DNA of 64,000 nucleotides from Ascidiella aspersa (lineage: Eukaryota): positions 558,001-622,000 of the forward strand of contig OZ004614.1 in assembly GCA_963924565.1 (NCBI GenBank), written 5' to 3'. The position numbers were made by a program, and so were the translations under genes. Of the stretch, positions 9,401 through 52,710 are shown one piece after another. Each line of letters begins with the position of its first letter. The stretch's first letter is position 1. The notes beneath the pieces were generated by a model. The model was not told the DNA's origin. It worked only from the letters and a program-made list of their open reading frames with translations, and made no database searches.

Positions 9401-12400
9401 TTTAATGTTTAATTATTACTGAATACTATTAAACAGACTATAGGCCATCCTCAGGCGAACAACTAGGATTATTTGTAAGCCGTAACATGTTTTTTAAAGA
9501 CGTCACAAAGTTACGTATAAACATGACGTCATAAATAGCTTACCCCCAAAACACCACACAATCAGTTTATTTTGTTTAAGATTGAAAAGGTGTTACTTGT
9601 ATGCTATCGATTAGCGCAAAGCTAGAAATCATTTAAGTTGCTACATACATATTCGAGTGCGCGTTACATATACATCATAATACAAAGCACGCGTCACCAT
9701 ACATTGCACTAGCATGTATACAAGTGTGTAAAGTAGTGAGAGATGTTGTTCTCCTTCCACGGCCGCCAGCTCAGCTCGTAGACGCGCTGTTGCAGAGATT
9801 ATGGACTTTAACGCAATTTTGTTAACCTTTATATTTGACAACCCCCAAAAATTTAATGCCGAAGTATTGCTGCTCATTTGGAAATTTCTTACGGAACCAG
9901 GTCGATCTACTTTTTGTCTACCTCACAATTTTCCTGTGCTGCCTTGTAAACAACTTTATTTTTTCGCTGTTTGAGGTTGGTAAAATACAGCTAATCGTTC
10001 TATAACTTGTATTCTTTTATCTAGAGCAGTGAAGAAATTATCTTGAAGCCCGCTCAATTATTTGCCTTCGATCCTGATTCGCAAATTTCTCAACCAATCA
10101 GATACTCTCTAATCGGGGGTTCCCCTGATACCTACAACTTGTACTTTTCCATAGCGCCATCTAGCGGTCAATTATTTCTTAAGCAAGCGCTCCCTAACGC
10201 CACCCTGTGTCCGACCTACACACTTCACGTTATGGTGAGAACTTCTACTGTAGACGTAATATATAACGTTTAAGTATCACTGTTAAAAATGATTATTATT
10301 TTTTCTTTACAAGAAACTCCACTGAACCTAATCTTGTTGAGATTTATGTGCACATAAGTATAGCTGATCAAAGCTAATAAAACACTGGTATTTACAGCAA
10401 ATGTTTCGGTCGAAAAACTAGTTTATTACACTGAACCTAATTTTACATACACAGCAAATGTCAACTATTTTTATTTTCAATTTTTGTCAATTACCGACTT
10501 TGTTTCATTCATTAAAAACAGTTGACTAATACAGCATTGATTTAGTGATATAGCGAATTAGTAAATTTTGTGGTAAATTTTACTCCTAAAGACATTAAAA
10601 CTAACTACTGTAGGTAGGTTCAAATTACCACCTTCATATTCAACCACACTTAAGTGTGACAAGGAATTAGCATTAGCTATTTATTGTGTGTTTACGCAGG
10701 CGAGTCAGCTTGACAATCCTGACATGAACAACGTGGCTGAGGTAGAGGTCAAAGTCACCAGAGCCGCATTTGACCTTCAAAAACCCGTGATTGCACAACA
10801 GGGGGAATCCCCCCTGCCATGGTAAGACATCAGAGATAAGTTTGTCAAATGAAGTGACTTTTGGGCGCTAATGTTACATTCGATTAAAAATAGAAAATCT
10901 GATTTTTAAAGAGAATAAAGCCACACTTATTTTTGTTGTGCGAAGCATTTTGCAAATTAAATAATTTTCTCTATAATTGAAATGAAAAACGGGAAATTTT
11001 GTTGGTCTGCAGTTCTACAACTTCCTAATATTATATGAAAAACGTTGTTTTGGTGGAAAATCGGTTATTATTCATCCAGACTGTTCTGTAGTGAACAAAA
11101 AGTTAAACTTATTTATATTATTAAAACAAAACGTAGTTAGCAGCAAACTATTATATTTTTTTTTATTTTTTCGCAGTTTCCTTGACGATTCTTACAGCAG
11201 CGAAATATCGACTGTGACGTCACAAGGCAAAGCGCTCGTCCTCCGAGTGATCGACGAGGATTACCCCGGGATAAAGCAACCCGAGTTCAAGTTCACCCTC
11301 ACCCCTAATAACGGGGAATTTTTCGTGACAAAGAGGGGCGTGGTTGGGGCCGACTTGCGGAAGCTTCGGGAAAGTGGGAAAAGCGATTATGACGTCACAG
11401 TAAGTTCGCGCGTATTTTCAGTTGTCGTATCTTTCATTTTTTTTCGTTTTCTGATGAATCGCGAGAAAAAAATTTTTTAACACATTTTAAGGCAGTATTA
11501 TTAGCACTACTTTTTCAGGCTGTCGTGACGTAATACGTCTGGAGTGACGTAATTAGCCTGTTGTGACGTAAAAGCATTAATGAAACTGCCGAGAATGGGG
11601 CATTTGGAAAACTTTTGTTAAAACATATTTGGAAAATATTTTCGACTGTCACGCTTTAGTTTTTTAACGTTTACAACACAAGTGAATTAAACTCGCATCG
11701 CGTTTGTCTACTGTTACGTCATAAAGGTGATAGCTGAGAACGATGACGCAGCTAACGATTCAAATCGCTACAGCGAACCCATGATTCTGCATGTCCAAGT
11801 TTCAACGAACGAGGGAAAGGCGGGTAAGATGAAACTAACAATATAAATGACTTGTCCGATAGTAAGGGATCGGATCAAAAAACGATACTAAGTTGCAGTA
11901 TAGGTACTTGTCCGGTACTTGGAATATAAGATTTTCAGCCATGTTTTGCAATCCAATCAGTTATTTATATCTTGAGGGGTAGGTTTATTAAAAAATAGAA
12001 TTGGTCGCTTTATAAGGAATCTTTCTTGCACGATACGTCAGTAGCATCCTGATGAAGATGTTCTGTACAGCACGTCGAAACGTCGATTGTTTATGTAATA
12101 CTGCTTGTGAGCAACACTTTGTAAACAGCTGAAGGAAACTAAACTTCATAAGTGAAGCAAGCTGTGACCCAAACTCCCATTTAAACGTTTCTATTCCGTC
12201 GATTTTGTTTGGTGACCTTAGTAATGACGTCATTTGGTATCGAACCGGATCGCGATATTTTTTAAGTATCTGTATCGGAATAAAATGTCAAGTATCGGAC
12301 TTTTCTCATTCTGTGGACAAAATATTTTTTGAACTTAAAGTTAAAAACCTGTCATAACGAAGTTGTTGAAAACATAACCCTTGAGATAATAAAGTAGATA

Positions 12401-15400: not shown

Positions 15401-18400
15401 TGATAGTGAATGTCAAAGCCAAAGAGGTCGAGTATATTGACCTCATCTTGATAACGACGTTTTAATACGAACTTGTATCGTCATCAGTTGAAAAAATATT
15501 TCCGATGTAAATGTTTATTTTCCGTATTAACTGACAAAATGATACAAATGCGGGCATAGCAATAGTAATCAAAAAGTAGCTTATCTTGTAATTGTAATTC
15601 TTAACCAACGTTTTGGCAACCTTTCCAAGTCCTGAAGCTATGAAGGCGGTTAACAGTAAACATTACCAGAGGAGCTGTTTTTGAATATTATTTACCCACT
15701 TTGTTAGACAATTTTTCCAGTAGCAAAATACAACACGATTTCAGTTTGCTACGGGTGTTAATTTCGACATTTCGCTAACCCTCCTTTCAACCACAGAATG
15801 TCTTTACATCGTGAACGAGTTCGTTCCATCTCGAAGTCTCAGAAAGGTTTTAATCAGCAGCAGAATGCTCGAACATTCCGCGGTTATTTCAAGTTTATCA
15901 GGGTCACAACTGCTCAACTTTGTTATCGGTAAGTCTTCTTTAACCTTCTAACATAAAAGGTGTTTAATTAAACTGCATACACAGTATTACACATAGGCTA
16001 CGCATCAATTGTAAAATTGTTCTTCCGCCAATATTTATATTAATAAATGTCGACGTTTCGATGACCTATACAGGAAATCCTTATCAGGATCAACTGGGCG
16101 AAAAATGTATATAGTTGCAATAATATTGCCATGATGAAGATTTTAATAGGTTATCTAAATGTCGAAACATTTAATAAAAAAAAGTATATTCAGTAATTTT
16201 GTACAAAACTAAATGGTGTGTGAACTTTTTTCTTTAAAAGACCAAAAAGCAATAATTCCGTAACTATTTCATAAGCCTCGAGAAAAACATTATTTAAATT
16301 CTGTCCACTTTTTAAAGTAAATCGCAAGAATCACTTCGTTTTTTCGTAGACATAGCCGAGGGCCTTTCCTATCTCCATGACAACGACGTGCTCCACGCAT
16401 GCTTGTGCGCAGGTCACGTGCGCATCACTGATTCGCTGACCGCCAAACTGACCGAATGCTGCAGTGAGACCTCGCAGCGGTACAAACTGGTGGGTGCTTT
16501 GGACGCCATCTTTAGTCTGTTTAAATTAAATTGATTGATAGCAACTGGTAAATATTTGTTGGGCCAGAGAGTTGTGGATTGCGTTATTTTTTACTGGTGT
16601 CTTTTTACTGAAGATAATTGTCATTTATGTCCAGACTTTTGACAAAAACCCTTGTCTACTTATTTTACCAGTGGAGCCAAAATTAATGGATTACAAAGAT
16701 AAAAAAGGAAAAGAATGGGTGATCTTAAAATAACCCTTTGAAAACATTGAGCATTCTGCGAAGATAACTTTAAGATTTAATTTTTTCACTTAAAGCAACA
16801 TTTGTCGAAGGATATTCGGGTTTTAATTTTAAATCCTGTTGGATTGGGATTAATATTTGTATCGGCTTTACTCCTGACCTGGTCGCATTTACGAATAAAA
16901 TCGACGTTTTATGCAGAAAAGTAAGAGATGGCTCGCACCTGAAGTTGCCGCTAAGCAACCTTACTCAAACAAGGCTGACGTGTAAGTTTACGTGTGAAAA
17001 TAAAATGAAAAATAAAACAAAATAATTATTAGAATTTTGAGAATTATTTTTAATAATTGTTTTTTTTAAATAATTTTTAAATTTTAAACTTAATCGGTGG
17101 GTTAACTTAAAAATTAAAAAAATAATTGTCTGTAGGTTTTAGTCATTTTAAAATCACCCATAACGTTAATTTTCAAACATCACAACTAACCTAGAAATGA
17201 TTTACATTTTGTTCATGATAAAAGTCATATAACTTGAAAGTGCGTGTTTTCATATATTTCAGATGGTCGTACGGAATTCTGGTCTGGGAAGTTCTCTCGC
17301 TAGGTGGCACACCTTTCGATGACGTCAGTGAAACCATGGTTACCGATTATGTAGAACGGCAGCTGGAGACCGGGAGTTCGGTGTTGCCCGTGACCAGGTG
17401 AAAGGGATCACGAAAATCTTTATTATGATCACTAAAATTATGTTATGATCTCCTTAAAACCTATCATGATCATTAAACCTTATAATGATCGCGAAATTTA
17501 ATCATGATCATGAAAACTAATCACAATCACGAAAAACGAATCATGATCACTAAACTTTAAACGAAGCACATTTTGTATAAAGTAGCACAATACTAGATTG
17601 AGTAAAAACTTAATAAAGTCAGAAAAAACACACCCACACCACAACGTAAAAAATTTCTGACCAATTTAGTCCCTGAGAAAAGTTCATAGAAACGAAACTT
17701 TGACGTTTAAACTTGCTTCGCTTTTGAAATTGTGAATTTCTATGTTCACAAAAACACGACCAAGAGGCTTTGGATCACTAAAGTAATTATGGTCACTTAA
17801 TCTAATCCTAAGCGCAAACCCCCCCCAAAAACATTATAATTATTTTTTTAGAAACACGACCAAGAGGTTTTGGATGATGCTTCAGCGATGTTGGGCAAAA
17901 GAAGCTCACCAGCGCCCACTGATGGAGGATATTAAGAGCTTGTTGTCGAACATGAAAGCTTCGTCGGTGAGAAAAGTGGGGAGCGGGGTGTATGGGGACC
18001 TCGCAATAACATGTGGATTGTTTTTTCTATTTAAAAACTTCTTTTTTCTTCCTAAAAAAAGGATTGGCTTAAAATTTGCTCAAGCTAAAATAGAAAAAGT
18101 ATTTAAGTTTTTTTATTCACCTAAAAAATATTTGAATGATTATGAGTAAAAATTTTGTTTTGTAGTTATTTTTTTCTGTACTCAAATAATAATAAACATC
18201 ATTTTCATTTCGACCGAAAACATAAAACGCAACAATAAAATATTTTTTTGGAAGCGGTTGCAAATTCCCAGGGCGGAAGTTCGAATTCCATCATAGCTTT
18301 AATAAGGAATAGTGAGATTTCTTTCATACAACAATAAAAAAAAAGAAACAAAAAATTCATGTATTGTTTTATAGGAACTTAAAATGGATTTTTTTATTTT

Positions 18401-34775: not shown

Positions 34776-37084
34776 ATGTCTCGACTCTCTATCGCCGCCC
34801 TCCTGGTAGTCTACTTTGTGGGGAATTCCCTTGCTTGGCCAGCAATTCGTAAGTAATTTAAAAATATTTTTGTTATAAAGGTTTATTTCTACTGCTGGTC
34901 TAGAATTCTACCACATTTACGTCCAGGGGTGTTTTGGCTAAGAATATTTGGCTTCGGGTGCGAGTTAGCGTCTGGGTTCAGCATTTCATGGGTTGTCTAA
35001 AGCCAAATGGCGCTATACATACTATATCATGTTTTCGTGTAACCTCATAATCTCTACAAAGCGCAGTTTTTTATTTATTTAATTAGATTAAACTATAAAT
35101 GCCGTTTAAACGAGTAATGCGAATCCTTACAAATCTTTAATTTAAAACTTGTGACGCACAAATATTCATCCCCCGTCCAAAAAACAAAATCCTGATACGC
35201 CCATGAAGCCAGCCTTGCTTTTATGCAGAGTTATTTACCACCTCCACCTGATGTAACTTTATGCTGACAATATATCGTGAGGGGGCAAATTGGGTCGGGT
35301 CGGATCTGAACTCGAGATCTTTGGAACTTGCACCGCAATTAATACCACAAGCGGTATATGATTTAAAGTTAGCATCTCCACTTTTTAACACAAGATTTCG
35401 TAAATGCTTACCGAAATCAGTATGTCTGATTAGGAATATAGTGCAAGGCCAGGCTAGAAAAACAACTAGCATGTGGTGAGGTTCGAACTCACGACCTCAA
35501 TCATACCGGGACCGTCGCTCTACCAACTGAGCTTCACAGGCTCAGAGGGGAGCAAGTCGAGAAACAACCATAGCACTGTTGTCTGCTGCATCCTGTTCGT
35601 AAAACTAGCCTGCAGTGAGGTCCGGGACCGTCGCTCTACCAATTGAGCTGACCACAGAATATACATTGTGTTTGAGTTGCACTATTTAAGTATAACTTTT
35701 AAACCAAGGTTTTGAATTGTGCTGTGTTTCAGGTTGTCAGTACGACGACTGGCAAGATTGGTCGGAATGTTTAAGAAGATACTGCGACTCATATGCGCCC
35801 CCTGGTGCCAAGTGCCAGCAGAACGTCCTCACTCCGACCCTAGGATCGCATTACTCGTGCGGCAACAGAGTCGACATTAGACGTAAGTCAACAGCAAACT
35901 GATATATGGACAATGAACGATAATATCGGACCAAAGCGTAAACCTGGTGATTGTAGCGGAACTCGCCCGATACCAAACGTATATAGGGATTTTAGCCATG
36001 GTTTGCGATAATAAGCAATTAACATTAACTAATGGTCATTCAAGTTCGTACCGAAACGCCTAATCAAGATAATGTCAATTACTCACTTTTTGGCCTTTCA
36101 ATTTATTATCAAGCTTCAATAAAGATGTGCATTGCGTACACACGCAATTAAAATCTATCAATAATATTTTCCAACTTCATCTTTTTTGCAAAAATTAACG
36201 TTAAATGTTCCAATTCCAGTTATTTTGCTTGTTTGAGCTTACTAATGACTTTTTTGGTATCAAAACGCGACACTTTTTGCCGAAAAATACTATCGGAATA
36301 TAATGTAGATATTTCCATCTAGGAGGTGCGATAATATCGAGTCTCACTTCCTAACCAGGCCGTAGCATCGGTACTCTGTAACGATCCGATAGCAAAGCGG
36401 CAAATGTAGGTTACGGCCATGGCTTCGGTTTAGATTCTATGACGTAACTTCAAAGGTTAAATTTTATTTAAAAATAGTAATGAATCACTTGAAGGTAAAA
36501 AAGCTTCCTATTTATGCTTCAAAACAAACTCTTACCCAAGCTTATTTTGAGTAGTCGGTCGGACTTTTTAGCCCAAAATACAGGGTTTACGAATAATAAA
36601 ATTGACTCTTTCAACAAATATATTCAGAATAAAGTCGGCTACTAATGTTTTAAAGGTTACGGTAATAGTGACCTGCCTTGTAGGTCCACACTTTGAATGT
36701 ACCAAGTAGATTGTTGCATTTAAGTTGTGATGTCGTTTTGCAGAATGTGAGGTCGAAGTACAATCACCGAAAAGTCCAGGCAAGGGAAGTTCTTCTGATG
36801 ACAGCAGCGACAGCTCGAGCAATTCTAACGGTGGCAGCTCCAGCAGTTCGAACAGCAAAACCTCAAAAGATTCTTCTTCTGATGATTCCAGCAAAAGCTC
36901 AAAGAGCAAGAGTTCAAAGAGCAAGAGTTCAAAGAGCAAAAGTTCAAAGAGCAAGAGTTCAAAGAGCAAGAGTTCAAAGAGCAAGAGTTCGAAGAGCAGC
37001 AAGAGTTCAAAGGGATCAAACAGTTCACAGAGCAGCAAAAGTGGAAGCAATTCACCACAGATTGGCAAGCATACATACCACTAA
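34776..37084 (+). CDS. Secreted 187-aa protein: signal peptide, TSP1-like module and Ser/Asp/Lys-rich tail
   Basis: Exons 34776-34848, 35733-35882 and 36744-37084 (both introns phase 1; 564 nt total). MSRLSIAALLVVYFVGNSLA signal; CQYDDWQDWSEC (WxxWSxC) with six Cys; tail GSSSDDSSDSSS..(KSKSS)6..HTYH*. Confidence 0.85.
35450..35600 (-). mobile_element. tRNA-derived SINE
   Basis: Minus strand AGCTCAGTTGGTAGAGCG (A box) and GTTCGAACCTCACCA (B box) at 35474-35540. Degraded copies at ~2790, ~9065, ~37540 and ~56857-56930, the last sharing the flank CAGGCTAGAAAAACAACTAG. Confidence 0.75.
36902..36991 (+). repeat. Coding 15-bp tandem repeat AAGAGCAAGAGTTCA x6 (KSKSS)
   Basis: Six near-perfect units. 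Confidence 0.95.
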
Positions 37085-39875: not shown

Positions 39876-42800
39876 ATGTATTGGGATATCACTGCCCGTA
39901 AAAAGGCTCTTTACAAGGGAGTATTAGTTTCTCTTGCCACGGCTGGAATCCTATGTTTAAGTTTCTTAATTTTCTCGAGCCAACAAAAGCCTGTCAGTGC
40001 GAAGGCGATCATTTCCGATCCAACACAACAACATGGATTTTTCTCCAGCGAAAGATTTGACATCGAAAAGTTTGAGGAAGGAAAAGACCCGTTTTCTTCG
40101 AACGACTACTTGCCGAGGAAACTCGCACATCTAGTTTCTTTCTCCGAGAAAGCTTTACATCCAGAAGCCAACTTATCGACGGTCATAGATAATGGTATTT
40201 CGGCTCGTACAAACTTTTCCTACTTGCTTGATGACCTCATTGCAACGGTGAACGTCTACAACTTCTTCTATTACATGTGGGGATGCAAGCAGTTGAAAGA
40301 AATGAAAGTAAGCAATGTTTCACACATCTAAGAATTGTTTTTGAGCTGTTCTACTCCACTTTTTATTAATTGGCAAAAGCAGAACCAAGTTTTGGTAGTA
40401 CTAGATTTATTCCTTATTTGATAATACATCTAATTTATATCTAATAATAAATTGGTTTGTACAGAAGATTAAATTGCTTTGGTTTAAATTAGATGCTTAT
40501 TATATGAAAGTAACAGCAGTTTATACCTATATATAAGTACATACATAATAAAAAATAATCTTATATGTGAATTTATATTAATTTTTAGTTTGATATTTCA
40601 AATTTTCAACTTTTCGAAACTCCCAACCCTAAATAGCTTATTCTATTCTCCAGCCTTTAAATGTTTGTTTTTTAAAGATTTATAAATTCACACACTTTTT
40701 TGAAGCTGTTTCTTTAATTCTTTAAAATATTTTTTCCTGTTGATGAACGATTTATTCCATTTTATTCAGATTGAGGATGTGTTGTACGACACTAAGCACA
40801 AGACTGTTTACCGAGCTATACAAAATGAATACCAAGTTGCTGTAGAAGTGGCAACAGTGGACGTTGACGAGCTGATTTCAGCTCAATGTGGATCGGCAGA
40901 TTCAGATCATTCGCAACAAAACTTGGACAGATGCTTCCTCATCAAATACAGGCATAATTTAATTTTTTTTTTAAGTTAATGTTTGTCAACCTTTTTTTCT
41001 GACGGGATCTAAATAGCAAGCATAACTATAACATCAAAGTGTTTGACGACCTATTGCTATACTTCATTAATGAACTTTTTTCTCATTACTTAACTTTTTG
41101 TAATTGGTCAAAACGTAAGACAAATAACATAACTCAAATTGAATTTAACTAATATGAACCATATTTTATTATTTCTTCTACAATTTTCTTAATTTTAGAG
41201 CAATTTTTAATCATAATTTTAATATTTATAGTGATATTAAACTTTAGAGCATAATAGCTGGAGGTTGTAGTTAGACGTAGAATATCAATGCACATAAAGA
41301 AGTATGTACCATTTGAACGTTGTTGCACTGAATATGTGAATAATAGAAATCACCTTGACCCTTGCAAGATAAATGTCGACCTTAATTCCTGATCAGTAAC
41401 AGCAAAATAATCTAGCAAAGCTAGCAATTCAGGTCAGACACATTAACCAGATCTTAAAAAGATATATATATATTTCGCCAACTAAGGCATCGTCAGTATA
41501 TCTTAATTCGAAGATTCATTCGAATTAAGATATACTGACGATGCCTTAGTTGGCGAAATATATATATATCTTTTTAAGATCTGGTTAATGTGTCTGACCT
41601 GAATTGCTAGCTTTGCTAGATTATTTTGCTGTCCATTTGAACGTTTTAAACAATTCTTTAATTATTTTCAACATTATTATATATATTTTCTTATTTCAGG
41701 CATGTTCTTGAAGAGGCGGTTATATTGTCGCAGTTCTCTCACCCAAACCTTGTCAAAGTTGTTGGATTATGTGTTCAAAGGCCAAATGCCGCTGTTAAAT
41801 ATGGTAAACCAAACTTTTGTTTATATCAGTTTAATTTTATGCATATCAATTTTTGCTACAACTTTAAGAAAATTCAACTTATATTGGGGAGCTAAATATA
41901 TAATGAAATATATTTTAAAATATGCCTAAAATATTCACAAGGTCTTAAATATTGTTAAAAATAAACAAAAATTAACAAAGTTTAAAAAAGTTAAAAAGAT
42001 AGTTTTGCTAAAAAATAAAAATACCCTTTTAACTTGTCTAGTTTAGTCTGTCCTCATTATTGACCACTTAATATTTTTTTCTGTAAAAGTTTACCTTATC
42101 TCAACAGCCATATAATTGGTATATCACCATACTTATAAAACTACTGTATTCATTTGTTTAAATTGTTTTGTTGTAGAGAGCAAGATTTCATCGTCATCTG
42201 GGGTTGTTCTCATCAAAGAAACAGGAACAGCGGTTAACATTGATAAACTAAAGCTCATGACATGGAACCAAAAAATACAAGTAATTTACCTCAAAATTTA
42301 AACAAATAAAAACTGCCAAGAAAATATCAAATTGTTGTTAAAGATTTTTAAACTTTCTAGAAGTAAAGGCAAAAGGTTACCATAGTGTTTAATATTTTTT
42401 TACCAGTAATCCTAACTTTAAAATAATTAAAAGTTGTTTCTAAATTTGTTACTGTTATAAAAACACACTAAATCATATATCTTTGCGATCCTTAGGATTT
42501 AAAAAAACAAAATCCTACCCCTGGTGCCCTCCAGTGTCAACAATGTTCCCTTGCAGATCTGCTTCGACCTTGTGTCGTTCGCAAACTATTTGTCGCGATC
42601 TCCGGTTGGAAGCGTCTTGTTCCAAGGCTGGGACGTCGAAAACTTTATTCTTTCGCCCAAAAGTGGGACGATTAGGCTCCGAACGTTCGGCCAAAACATC
42701 CAGGTGTCCGACCCATCGTGTGTCAACAATGCTGATTGTTATGTGGACGGAACAGACGCAGGTAAACATCTTTTAAGCTTAACGTTGGCAATTTTATGTG

Positions 42801-45800
42801 ACATTTTGTGTCAAATTTAAAGTTTGAATTCCATTGGTTTGTTAGTTAGAGCAGGGCTTATCAAACTTTTTGATAAAAGAAAAACATCGCGGGACAGACA
42901 ACTGTTGCATTTACGATTGCGGGCCGTTATTAATTTTTTGTCATACTCTTTAACTTAAATATATTATCCAAGAAAAGGCACCAAAAACTTGAGTTTTAAT
43001 AAATTGTCATTTAGTTTGAAATTTAATCATCATATTGTTTGGAATTTGTTTATCATGTTGTTTTCTTGTTGTTTTTTACTTATAAAAAGCTATGTGAATA
43101 AAACTTGGTCACAAAAGCTTTGTTGTTACACTTATGTCCGTGATAAAGGTTGAGAAACAATGTAACTAATTACGTCTTGTGCAAGGGAATAGAGTCAGCT
43201 TATTTGAGTTTTTTGTGATTTAAAAACACTTTTGTTTTACTTTTTCCAAAAAAACTGTTAAAACTGTAAATATAATTTTAATGGTGAAAAAAAAACGGCC
43301 CAAATTGACGTAAAAAGCGACAAGTTTATTGTTCAAACATTTCGGCAAATGCTCATGACATGTGGCCTTAATATCACTGATGATGGCATGAGCATTTGCT
43401 GAAACTTTTGAACAATTAAGCATGTTGCTTTTTACTTCTATTTTGGCCGTTATTTTCACCATTAAACTTATGAACAGACCCGTATATAGTGTTCCAATGT
43501 AAATATAATGTTTATTATAGCTCTGCACTATAGTTTTGATTCCTTGATACTTCTGTTTTAGGATAAATTATAAAACAAGATTTTTTTGCTCAAAGCAGTG
43601 AATTAATTTATTCTACATATTCTTTCGGGTGCCTTTGAAACTTTTCTACTACATTACCAGAACTAGTGCTTTATTGTCTCTTGTTAAAAATAAACTTAAC
43701 ACAAATTTCACAAAATAAAATATTTAAAACAGTCAAGGTTAAACTTTTTTATTTATTTCTGTTTTTTTTACAGAACACCCATTCAGTCTATTAAAACAAA
43801 AAATTACCCTAAACCTGCTTTACAAAATTCAATATTTCTCCAGACATTCTGTGCTACAAGAAACGGTGCAAGGGGTACAATGACCTGAAAAATCTGGCAG
43901 ACTTGGGCCAAACCTTCCTGCTCCCCCTTCTCCAGTACGGAGTTCCACCGGCCAACGTGGCCAGCCAGGCCAGGGACATTATCGGCCAGCTGAAAGTAAA
44001 TTCACTCTCCAGCAAAGAACTGCTCTTACGACTGGAGAAGCTGATGCCAAACAGTAAGTAAAGTTACAAGTTGACACGATTAAGTGAGAATATCAAAGTC
44101 GAGACTGCATGAACTATGTTGAAAATGAATAAATAGATGTTTGAAATGTTTCAAATGCTACCTACTTATTGCATATGATGTTCTATGTTGCTTTCAGTAA
44201 CATATGCTGGAAGCTTGCTTGTTGATCAAATTATGTATAAATTAAATTGTCTGACTATAATAAGGGTTCCTAGTTTTAAATTTGTCTAACACATTAAAAA
44301 CTAGTTAATTTGAAAATATTTACTTCAAAATGTATATAGATTTATTTCAATTATCACTTTTTTGCATATATTTTTGTAAACTTTTGTTCAATAATAAAAT
44401 AACAACATCTTAGTTTTATAATGAATGTCAAAGCCCAAAAGAACTTGTATCATCATCAGTTAATGTGACTGAAGTAAATTCAAACCTTGTTCATTAAATC
44501 CTTATTTATCTCAGTTTAATGTCGCAAATTTATTCCAACAGTCCCAGGAATGAACAGGAACGGAGCTAACGAACTCCTCGCACAGCAAGAAGCAAATAAC
44601 AACAACCCTGCCATACTAAGCATGAGAAAGTTACCAGATGGTTCACAGGTTTGTTTGTATGAGCCAGGTCATGTGAGCAACTTAACTTATCAAAAACGTT
44701 TGGGAATCACTGCAGTATATGATATGCAGTAAAACTTGGTATCGTGAAAGTATCTTTACTACAGTCTAGTATCGTATCGAGTAATGTATAAACACTAGGC
44801 TAACCATGACAATAAGTCATAAATTGCTTCATCGTTAATTATACCATCCAACTAGTACCTACCTACTCTGGCCCATTCAAAATGCCCACAAATACTTATT
44901 CTTTGCATCCAACAGGTTGACTCATGGGAACAACACGAAGCCCGGGTGTCAATCAACGAGGTGAACGCTCGAGGCGCAGCCCTAAAAGCACCAGAAAAAG
45001 ACAAAATCGTTGAGCCACTTCAACCTGAGGCTCCACGCAAGCAAGATGTGAGTTGCAGATAAAACTTTATTGGTTATTGGGTATATCAGTCATATAAGTT
45101 TGTAAATTGCAGGACACGAATTTTATGCCTTTGAAAAACGATTTGGGGTAGGTCGGTTTTTCATGCATTTTTATGCCAGCAAATTGGCTGTAAAACTACC
45201 TGCGGTGGGATTCAAATTCACAACCCTAGTCTTAACATTATGTTTAATTGTTTAATTGAAGTTTATAATAATTATTTGCAATTGCAACTCTATTCATATT
45301 TGCATTGACGTGTTAAACAAGTGTTACAAAACACTTTAAACAAATATTTAACACCAGGTAAACTTAGTTGCAGTTTCAATTTGCCGTTTTTTATCCCTTA
45401 TTTGAATTTGTTTTTTATTAATTTTTTAACAAACAAGTTTTTTTTATCACCATCTTCAAACTACTTAATGAAGCCCTTGTCATAAATTTTAAACCACGAC
45501 CCTTTGACCCCATATTTCATTCCCACCCCTAAATCCCTTAAACGGCCCCAAGTCACAAATTCAGCCTCTAACACCAACCTTTTAAATCAAACCCCTCAAG
45601 AGCACCTTAAAGTTATTTCTCAGCTTTAAACGCACACATTAATTGAATTGTAAGCTCTTAAAACCTCTCCAATTTTTAATCAAAGACAGATTTTTTCTTA
45701 TAAGTGAAAATTTCAATAAGTGCAAAAAACACAGCAAAAATCTATTTTTTATGAAAGAAGCCATTAAAGCCCCAACACCCCCAATTTTCATTCTGATTCC

Positions 45801-52426: not shown

Positions 52427-52710
52427 TTAATTATAAAGAGGGTTCTTCCGACAATTATTTATTCTGTATCGACGTTTCGATAACCTATCCAAGTAATCTT
52501 CATCAGGGCATTTAAACTTGTAACCTTGCAGAGGTATATATATACAGTGAAGAAAAACGACGAAAAAACAATGTGGCAAAACGAGGCGAAAAAAAAAGAA
52601 AAAAGAAAAAGAAAACAAGGCGCGAATAACGTGAAAACGTGGAAACCGGCTAATTGTCGGAAGAACCCTCTTTATAATTAATACAATGCCTGGCAGCAAC
52701 AGTATATTCA
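52427..52710. mobile_element. Hammerhead-bearing PLE-like repeat with an internal inverted repeat
   Basis: Direct repeat TTGAAGAAGTA (52416-26 / 52711-21); perfect 34-bp inverted repeat 52424-52457 / 52651-52684; minus-strand CTGATGA-A-GAT..ATC-GAAA-CG-TC at 52471-52506. Related copies at ~875-990 and ~16010-16175. Confidence 0.6.

Follow-up and report, generated by a model that had tools for sequence, protein, structure and literature searches.

The window, i.e., the whole stretch of 64,000 nt of Ascidiella aspersa DNA that was analysed, includes a series of kinase-like exons (40770-42820), in which the catalytic motifs look altered relative to what we take to be the consensus. Two of these exons, both with RNA depth on the + strand and with no splice joint among the RNA reads, flank an older dispersed repeat that is split by a short insertion (Table 1). 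The upstream exon is followed by a probable GC donor at 40952. We infer that the insertion sits in an intron of the kinase-like gene, where the end of its palindrome is 67 nt ahead of the acceptor AG at 41698-41699, in agreement with the distance of about 70 nt given in a preliminary description of the locus. Elsewhere in the window, hammerhead-like cores at 12046-12086, 16050-16090 and 52468-52507 belong to another repeat family and fail our motif scan, and a tRNA-derived repeat, probably a SINE, is found at 35468-35541, with similar starts at 2791, 9066, and 56883.

Table 1. Features of the insertion and of the surrounding host gene (window positions).
Feature	Position	Strand	Basis or remark
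Left target-site duplication, 13 bp	41309..41321	.	Single copy in paralogues of the older repeat
Right target-site duplication, 13 bp	41633..41645	.	
Tail-bearing arm with part of the leader, the hammerhead, the 3' segment and the tail (element positions 7-197)	41322..41512	-	
PLE tail, 77 nt, between two recurrent 3' ends	41322..41398	-	
Tail-less arm, element positions 1-120	41513..41632	+	
Minimal type-I hammerhead, left arm, antisense to host gene	41459..41504	-	Motif scan
Minimal type-I hammerhead, right arm; predicted cut between 41564 and 41565	41527..41572	+	Motif scan
Spliced leader nucleotides 6-16, left arm	41502..41512	-	
Extra G preceding the leader, inferred RNA-cap copy	41513..41513	+	T at this place in leader genes
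Complete 16-nt leader (SL2), joined at PLE splice acceptor	41514..41529	+	Leader genes; same-base acceptor in unspliced copies
Older dispersed repeat, split by the insertion	41251..41675	.	Repeat families D6, D9, D15; alignment
Inferred upstream host exon; donor would be GC	40770..40951	+	Sequence; sparse + strand RNA depth
Downstream host exon, kinase-like	41700..41803	+	PF07714 E=4e-4, below family cut-off; RNA depth

The insertion consists of 311 nt, namely a palindrome plus a 77-nt tail that lies outside the palindrome and is part of the left arm. As previously described, the palindrome arms (41399-41512 and 41519-41632; 114 nt) are 100% complementary around a 6-nt spacer, and the direct repeat bordering the insertion is identical at 13 of 13 positions; it extends on neither side, and two paralogues of the older repeat in the window carry the target sequence once. 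Two opposed minimal hammerheads, one per arm, were likewise recovered with an 8-bp helix I, CUGACGA, an extra U, a GCC/GGC helix II, and GAAA-UAUA-UA. They were the sole matches of our own motif scan on both strands of the window, whereas Rfam returned none at gathering scores. The outer three pairs of helix I in the right arm are supplied by the AAG of a spliced leader. The palindrome is no chance feature, as the genome contains 167 exact matches to the 35-nt hammerhead core and 0 to its reversed control. While the structure given in the preliminary description stood, it had missed the 77-nt tail, the older repeat around the insertion, and the leader in the spacer, which is composed of one extra G and leader bases 1-5; the right arm is joined bluntly to a left arm without those six bases. 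The palindrome as such is ordinary, since its inverted structure is that known for insertions of Penelope-like elements (PLEs) and opposed hammerheads have already been reported in Schistosoma (PMC4209133). The spliced leader is its unusual part.

The proposed PLE origin is borne out by longer copies, in which the same repeat runs on upstream into a 3' UTR and then a frame with reverse transcriptase (RT), a CxxCxxC linker, and GIY-YIG; the hammerhead repeat lies about 260 nt past the stop of this frame. In one longer copy (L032), the 77-nt tail is followed by the ORF start. The frame at L130 has 660 aa, with RVT_1 (E=3.8e-4) and GIY-YIG (E=2.7e-3) both below the Pfam cut-offs, and 56 homologues at E<=1e-20 have RT and PF26215 domains; the only named one is from Phallusia mammillata, which, together with the leaders described below, points to an ascidian host. 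The family therefore combines the features of an EN+ PLE, i.e., an ORF linking RT to a C-terminal GIY-YIG, a minimal hammerhead in the pLTR, a tail at one end, inversion, and target-site duplication. At L033, CxxCxxC stands ahead of the GIY-YIG motif, and a cysteine motif in the RT-EN linker defines the Neptune and Nematis clades (PMC8557442). From this linker motif, the element is probably of Neptune/Nematis type, the two clades not being told apart. No intact master of the family to which the insertion belongs (family A) was found among 16 long loci, the longest frame being the one of 660 aa, which is without its N-terminus. Only 2 of 14 matches to the family A ORF start have >90% identity over >100 nt, and no tandem pLTR-ORF-pLTR source copy was found for family A. 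The related family C has tandem full-length copies at L139 with a period of 3,422 bp, in which the ORF stands directly behind the hammerhead in an operon-like arrangement. A search with the arm, in which 40 of 965 candidates were scored, listed 62 matches, of which 12 are 100% identical over all 114 nt (two being the window's own arms), which supports the recent activity claimed earlier. The perfect identity of one arm to the other, also taken as a sign of youth, carries no such weight, as it follows from the mode of insertion.

Copies of the family end at two recurrent places. Among 87 matches, the 3' end of the arm falls at positions 195-197 in 45 and at 118-125 in 37, and the raw DNA reads place one family end at 41321 (714 loose-end reads) and a second at 41398 (105 loose-end reads). 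Where both ends of a two-armed locus were mapped (35 loci), one was always a 120 end and the other a 197 end; 34 of these 35 are bordered by a duplication of 12-18 nt, allowing one mismatch, versus 1 of 280 swapped controls. Four of the copies (L017-L020; G000:C2, 28.69-29.11 Mb) are a single insertion multiplied by segmental duplication.

The 16-nt sequence at the centre of the palindrome corresponds to the leader exon of a multicopy host gene. Followed by GTAA, this 16-mer (SL2) has 2,275 exact genomic copies, which among the first 100 places listed lie largely in a 429-bp tandem array on C7, at about 14.77-14.83 Mb (L072). Downstream of the leader, the SL2 gene has a GT donor, a small stem-loop, and a U-rich run that we read as Sm-like; the base preceding the leader is T. 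SL2 can be aligned with the Ciona leader, whose sequence is printed in PMC7986045 and PMC1488885, over 14 positions with two one-base gaps. A second 16-mer (SL1), with 623 exact matches, is identical to the published Ciona leader, which is known from host mRNAs (PMC1488885). SL1 genes are arrayed on C3 at intervals of 584 bp, at about 5.24-5.29 Mb (L175), and have a GTAAG donor. The two arrays thus differ in site, in 16-nt leader, and in intron part, and both comprise multiple copies of a leader exon, a GT donor, and a short intron part with an Sm-like site. On the basis of genomic DNA, in which they are known here, we consider both 16-mers to be putative host spliced leaders, SL1 by its identity with Ciona. 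One major leader is described in Ciona (PMC1488885). A division of labour between the SL1 and SL2 arrays, like that of SL1 and SL2 in nematodes, is possible. Other copies of the leader gene, dispersed on C7 (L063-L069), differ in their upstream flank, are AT-rich on the downstream side, and seem to be carried within another repeat.

Comparison of short and long PLE copies locates the leader at a splice acceptor of the element. The short copies, including that of the window, have in common a fixed 5' end that is absent from the long copies. An initiator and a second ribozyme cut had been considered for this end, and both were dropped after the leader genes were found. In the long copies, a polypyrimidine-CAG precedes the first body base of the short copies, inside helix I of the hammerhead, and SL1 and SL2 both join family A at this same AG, an unpaired acceptor; for both leaders, the acceptor is read in DNA retrocopies. 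A hand count of family A arms in the first 100 of 181 matches gave 67 unspliced, 24 SL2, and 9 SL1; the pattern behind it admits all three forms and misses arms with eroded leaders, and the 24 SL2 rows include two with a one-base change and four from one segmental duplication. Splicing changes the length of helix I from 7 to 8 bp in family A, and in family B from 5 to mostly 6 bp. No cis-spliced form was found among 80 arms examined, no leader-headed long copy among the 16 long loci, and no SL intron part in any hammerhead-bearing arm examined. Of 35 arms of this genome (G000) that have both leader and hammerhead, 17 show a G ahead of the leader (p=3.5e-5 against 18%); this is only about half, partly through erosion of the junction. 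Reverse transcriptases are known to copy an extra base opposite the RNA cap, and this G is presumably such a copy.

The two arms of an insertion belong to one class. The first 100 core matches include 20 opposite-strand pairs, of which 16 are unspliced/unspliced, 4 leader/leader, and none mixed, for which the probability under independence of the arms, calculated by hand, is about 4e-4. Each insertion event would thus seem to draw on a single RNA or RNA pool. However, 10 differences separate the two arms of L030, and the arms of L060 are unlike at the first exon base, and hence both arms do not always derive from one RNA molecule.

Leader-headed copies extend beyond family A. By a script rule, 8 of 26 family B cores carry SL2; SL1 or variant leaders were seen at L118, L120 and L124, and most others have the polypyrimidine-CAG acceptor. 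In all five families with a hammerhead among the 16 long loci, a YAG lies 3-5 nt ahead of the core, and three of these five include leader-headed copies. Metagenome contigs were also scanned for a leader of Ciona type ahead of the first core motif, giving at least 122 stretches at 116 distinct sites, which may count one host repeatedly across assemblies. A G precedes the leader at 76 of the 116, and at 71 the leader runs into a complete hammerhead by our own rule. The metagenome and G000 have different PLE families, and the phenomenon therefore occurs in at least one further host. As separate observations, a Ciona-type leader heads LINE-like ORF1 sequences at about 1501 in L158, L159, and L160; L160 has a 287-aa ORF1-like frame and then an endonuclease-like start, and in L158 and L160 a degenerate second leader follows directly behind the first. 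At least two further leader-headed repeat families, hammerhead-free by our own rule, are found at L052, L056, L061, L062, L145, L153, and L168-L174.

According to folding predictions, the host pre-mRNA would contain a 114-bp hairpin (-197.0 versus -8.9 kcal/mol for the hammerhead) with the sense ribozyme hidden inside it, in line with the sequestration suggested earlier. The description of the insertion as self-silenced was overstated, in that no special design is required; opposed hammerheads are a by-product of PLE integration. The copy in the window would probably be inert either way, because a single minimal hammerhead from Schistosoma, a system with opposed hammerheads, showed no cleavage (PMC4209133). 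At 41423, A>G is present in 5 of 23 reads of RNA run X16, as against 14 of 1,214 DNA reads; at 41422, the corresponding figures for T>C are 3 of 23 and 0 of 1,223. Both changes are on the strand expected for editing. These changes were not counted as RNA editing; differences of non-editing type are equally frequent (41330 G>T, 11/44; 41443 T>A, 9/17), and the reads, which stem from any family copy and from another individual, are not attributable to the locus. No joint of an empty-site allele was present among the 15 joints listed (43 more being unlisted), at about fivefold single-copy depth.

The best explanation, to which we assign a probability of roughly 0.85, is that the insertion consists of two head-to-head PLE front ends, each starting with a host leader at the element's acceptor, and likely reverse-transcribed from capped, trans-spliced, uncleaved sense RNA. 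The ends, the duplication, the acceptor, the leaders with their genes, the extra G, and the uncut ribozyme of the template are seen directly in the DNA. PLE transcripts would be trans-spliced at the AG within hammerhead helix I, giving an RNA with the order cap, leader, hammerhead, tail, and ORF. The PLE protein would nick both target strands about 13 bp apart and prime two cDNAs, the first at position 197 and the second at 120, corresponding to the pair of internal starts described for PLEs. On spliced RNA these sites would lie less than 200 nt from the cap, such that the cDNAs would run off the 5' end, would often gain a base opposite the cap, and would then join head to head. On unspliced RNA, the same two sites would give long arms that retain the acceptor. 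The resulting stub would be a dead end, with its ribozyme inert in the predicted pre-mRNA hairpin. What we infer in this sequence of events is that the RNA is trans-spliced, that both nicks prime synthesis at the two sites, that the cDNAs run off at the cap, and that they are joined head to head. A start at the ribozyme cut shows no excess, with 8 pattern matches, at most 3 of which are arms starting there, versus 6 uninspected control matches, and this agrees with PMC11167929. A class of copies starting at the cut, suggested by a loose end in the RNA reads, was rejected; the loose end corresponds to L310, a hammerhead that is intact and has an insertion.

Several other explanations have to be weighed. 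That sequencing or assembly produced the palindrome as a fold-back artefact is hardly conceivable: although no read across the junction of the window locus itself was singled out, the flanks are unmirrored, one arm is longer than the other, the 13-bp duplication has remained intact, junctions vary between loci, and head-to-head joints of the family are present in raw Illumina DNA reads. A biological fold-back, in which the second arm is a self-primed copy of the first cDNA and requires no independent priming, would account for arms that are always of the same class, for private variants common to both arms in L021, L033, and L041, and for short snap-back additions at the junctions of L001, L003, L026, and L030; self-priming is also proposed in PMC3846280. 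Yet only the tail-bearing arm could be the first, and it is the tail-less arm that extends further 5' in the window insertion and in eight further loci (L002, L013, L015, L017, L021, L023, L028, and L029), so that pure fold-back is insufficient; the 10 differences between the L030 arms also speak against it, and we regard it as unlikely.

Two further alternatives concern the origin of the leader. The RT could have switched from PLE RNA to the abundant SL RNA as a template without any splicing, as the very large number of SL genes, the short jumps and snap-backs at junctions, and the final AG common to acceptor and leader might allow. The join, however, is exact to the base between leader donor and element acceptor, for two leaders, in three families, and in another host, and none of the hammerhead-bearing arms examined includes the intron part of the SL gene, which makes such switching highly improbable. 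Self-amplification of one or a few leader-headed stubs as SINE-like masters would fit the many identical stubs and the failure to find an intact autonomous master, but the same family is headed by two different leaders, 4-T and 5-T variants occur in both the leader and the unspliced class, and the stubs begin at leader base 1 with no upstream promoter sequence common to the loci. Trans-splicing would still be needed for the first stubs, and we give this proposal little chance. Trans-splicing of the element's own RNA, followed by run-off from two start sites, remains our preferred reading.

Spliced leaders in DNA are known as marks of retrocopies in dinoflagellates, where host retrogenes are leader-tagged; there the copies are of host genes, whereas in the present case the leader marks copies of RNA from the retroelement itself. 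Retrozymes and hammerhead SINE-like repeats are short, non-coding, hammerhead-bearing retrocopies. In contrast to tandem retrozyme monomers bounded by ribozyme cuts, the stubs described here end at the leader and at the RT start sites (120/197) and keep an uncut hammerhead, and no tandem monomers were seen. The inverted pLTR insertions of EN+ PLEs (PMC8557442, PMC3846280) are alike in their head-to-head arms, tail on one arm, target-site duplication, and RT followed by GIY-YIG. They differ in a tail of 30-40 versus 77 nt here, and in random 5' truncation, whereas a third of the listed arms here start with the leader, often with an extra G. The system described in PMC4209133 also has an extra base after A9, a palindromic helix III, and opposed motifs 100-700 bp apart. 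In Drosophila virilis Penelope, the same source describes a leader intron ending at helix I, with the acceptor, as here, at the 5' strand of this helix and different ribozymes before and after splicing; there it is a leader intron, while here a trans-spliced leader would come from separate genes. In PAc, a Poseidon element of Anolis (PMC11167929), two internal RT start sites bound the tail, both target strands are extended, and the template is uncleaved RNA. The sites of the present family are 77 nt apart, ahead of the ORF, and are used once each in every two-armed insertion examined. This strict 120/197 pairing is not explained by the PAc work, which gave no difference in start site between strands in vitro. 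A literature search of titles and abstracts, with most subscription papers outside it, found none on PLEs or other retrotransposons with a spliced leader or trans-splicing; tunicate PLE repeats may be included in the supplements of PMC4209133 and PMC8557442. What is likely new, judging from the sequences, is that an otherwise ordinary inverted PLE stub would preserve, at its centre, the trace of a leader trans-spliced onto the RNA of the element.

PMC3846280 left open how splice sites are retained through reverse transcription, and whether head-to-head copies derive from a sense or an antisense template. The leader and the extra G point to sense, spliced, capped RNA and could hardly have come from any other, and therefore the stubs are a built-in record of their template. 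Our data also suggest a basis for intron retention, in that internal priming makes only short, dead copies from spliced RNA, and long ones only from unspliced 3' repeats. Tentatively, tunicate PLEs may have made the leader intron an outron, such that host trans-splicing would resolve tandem transcripts into capped single messages and lengthen helix I; cleavage 51 nt from the 5' end, with the help of a protein, would remove the cap and stop translation, and spliced RNA would give dead stubs only, hence mobile copies would keep the splice site. In general, the results point to a second leader type in an ascidian, and to a retroelement that uses host trans-splicing as operons do.
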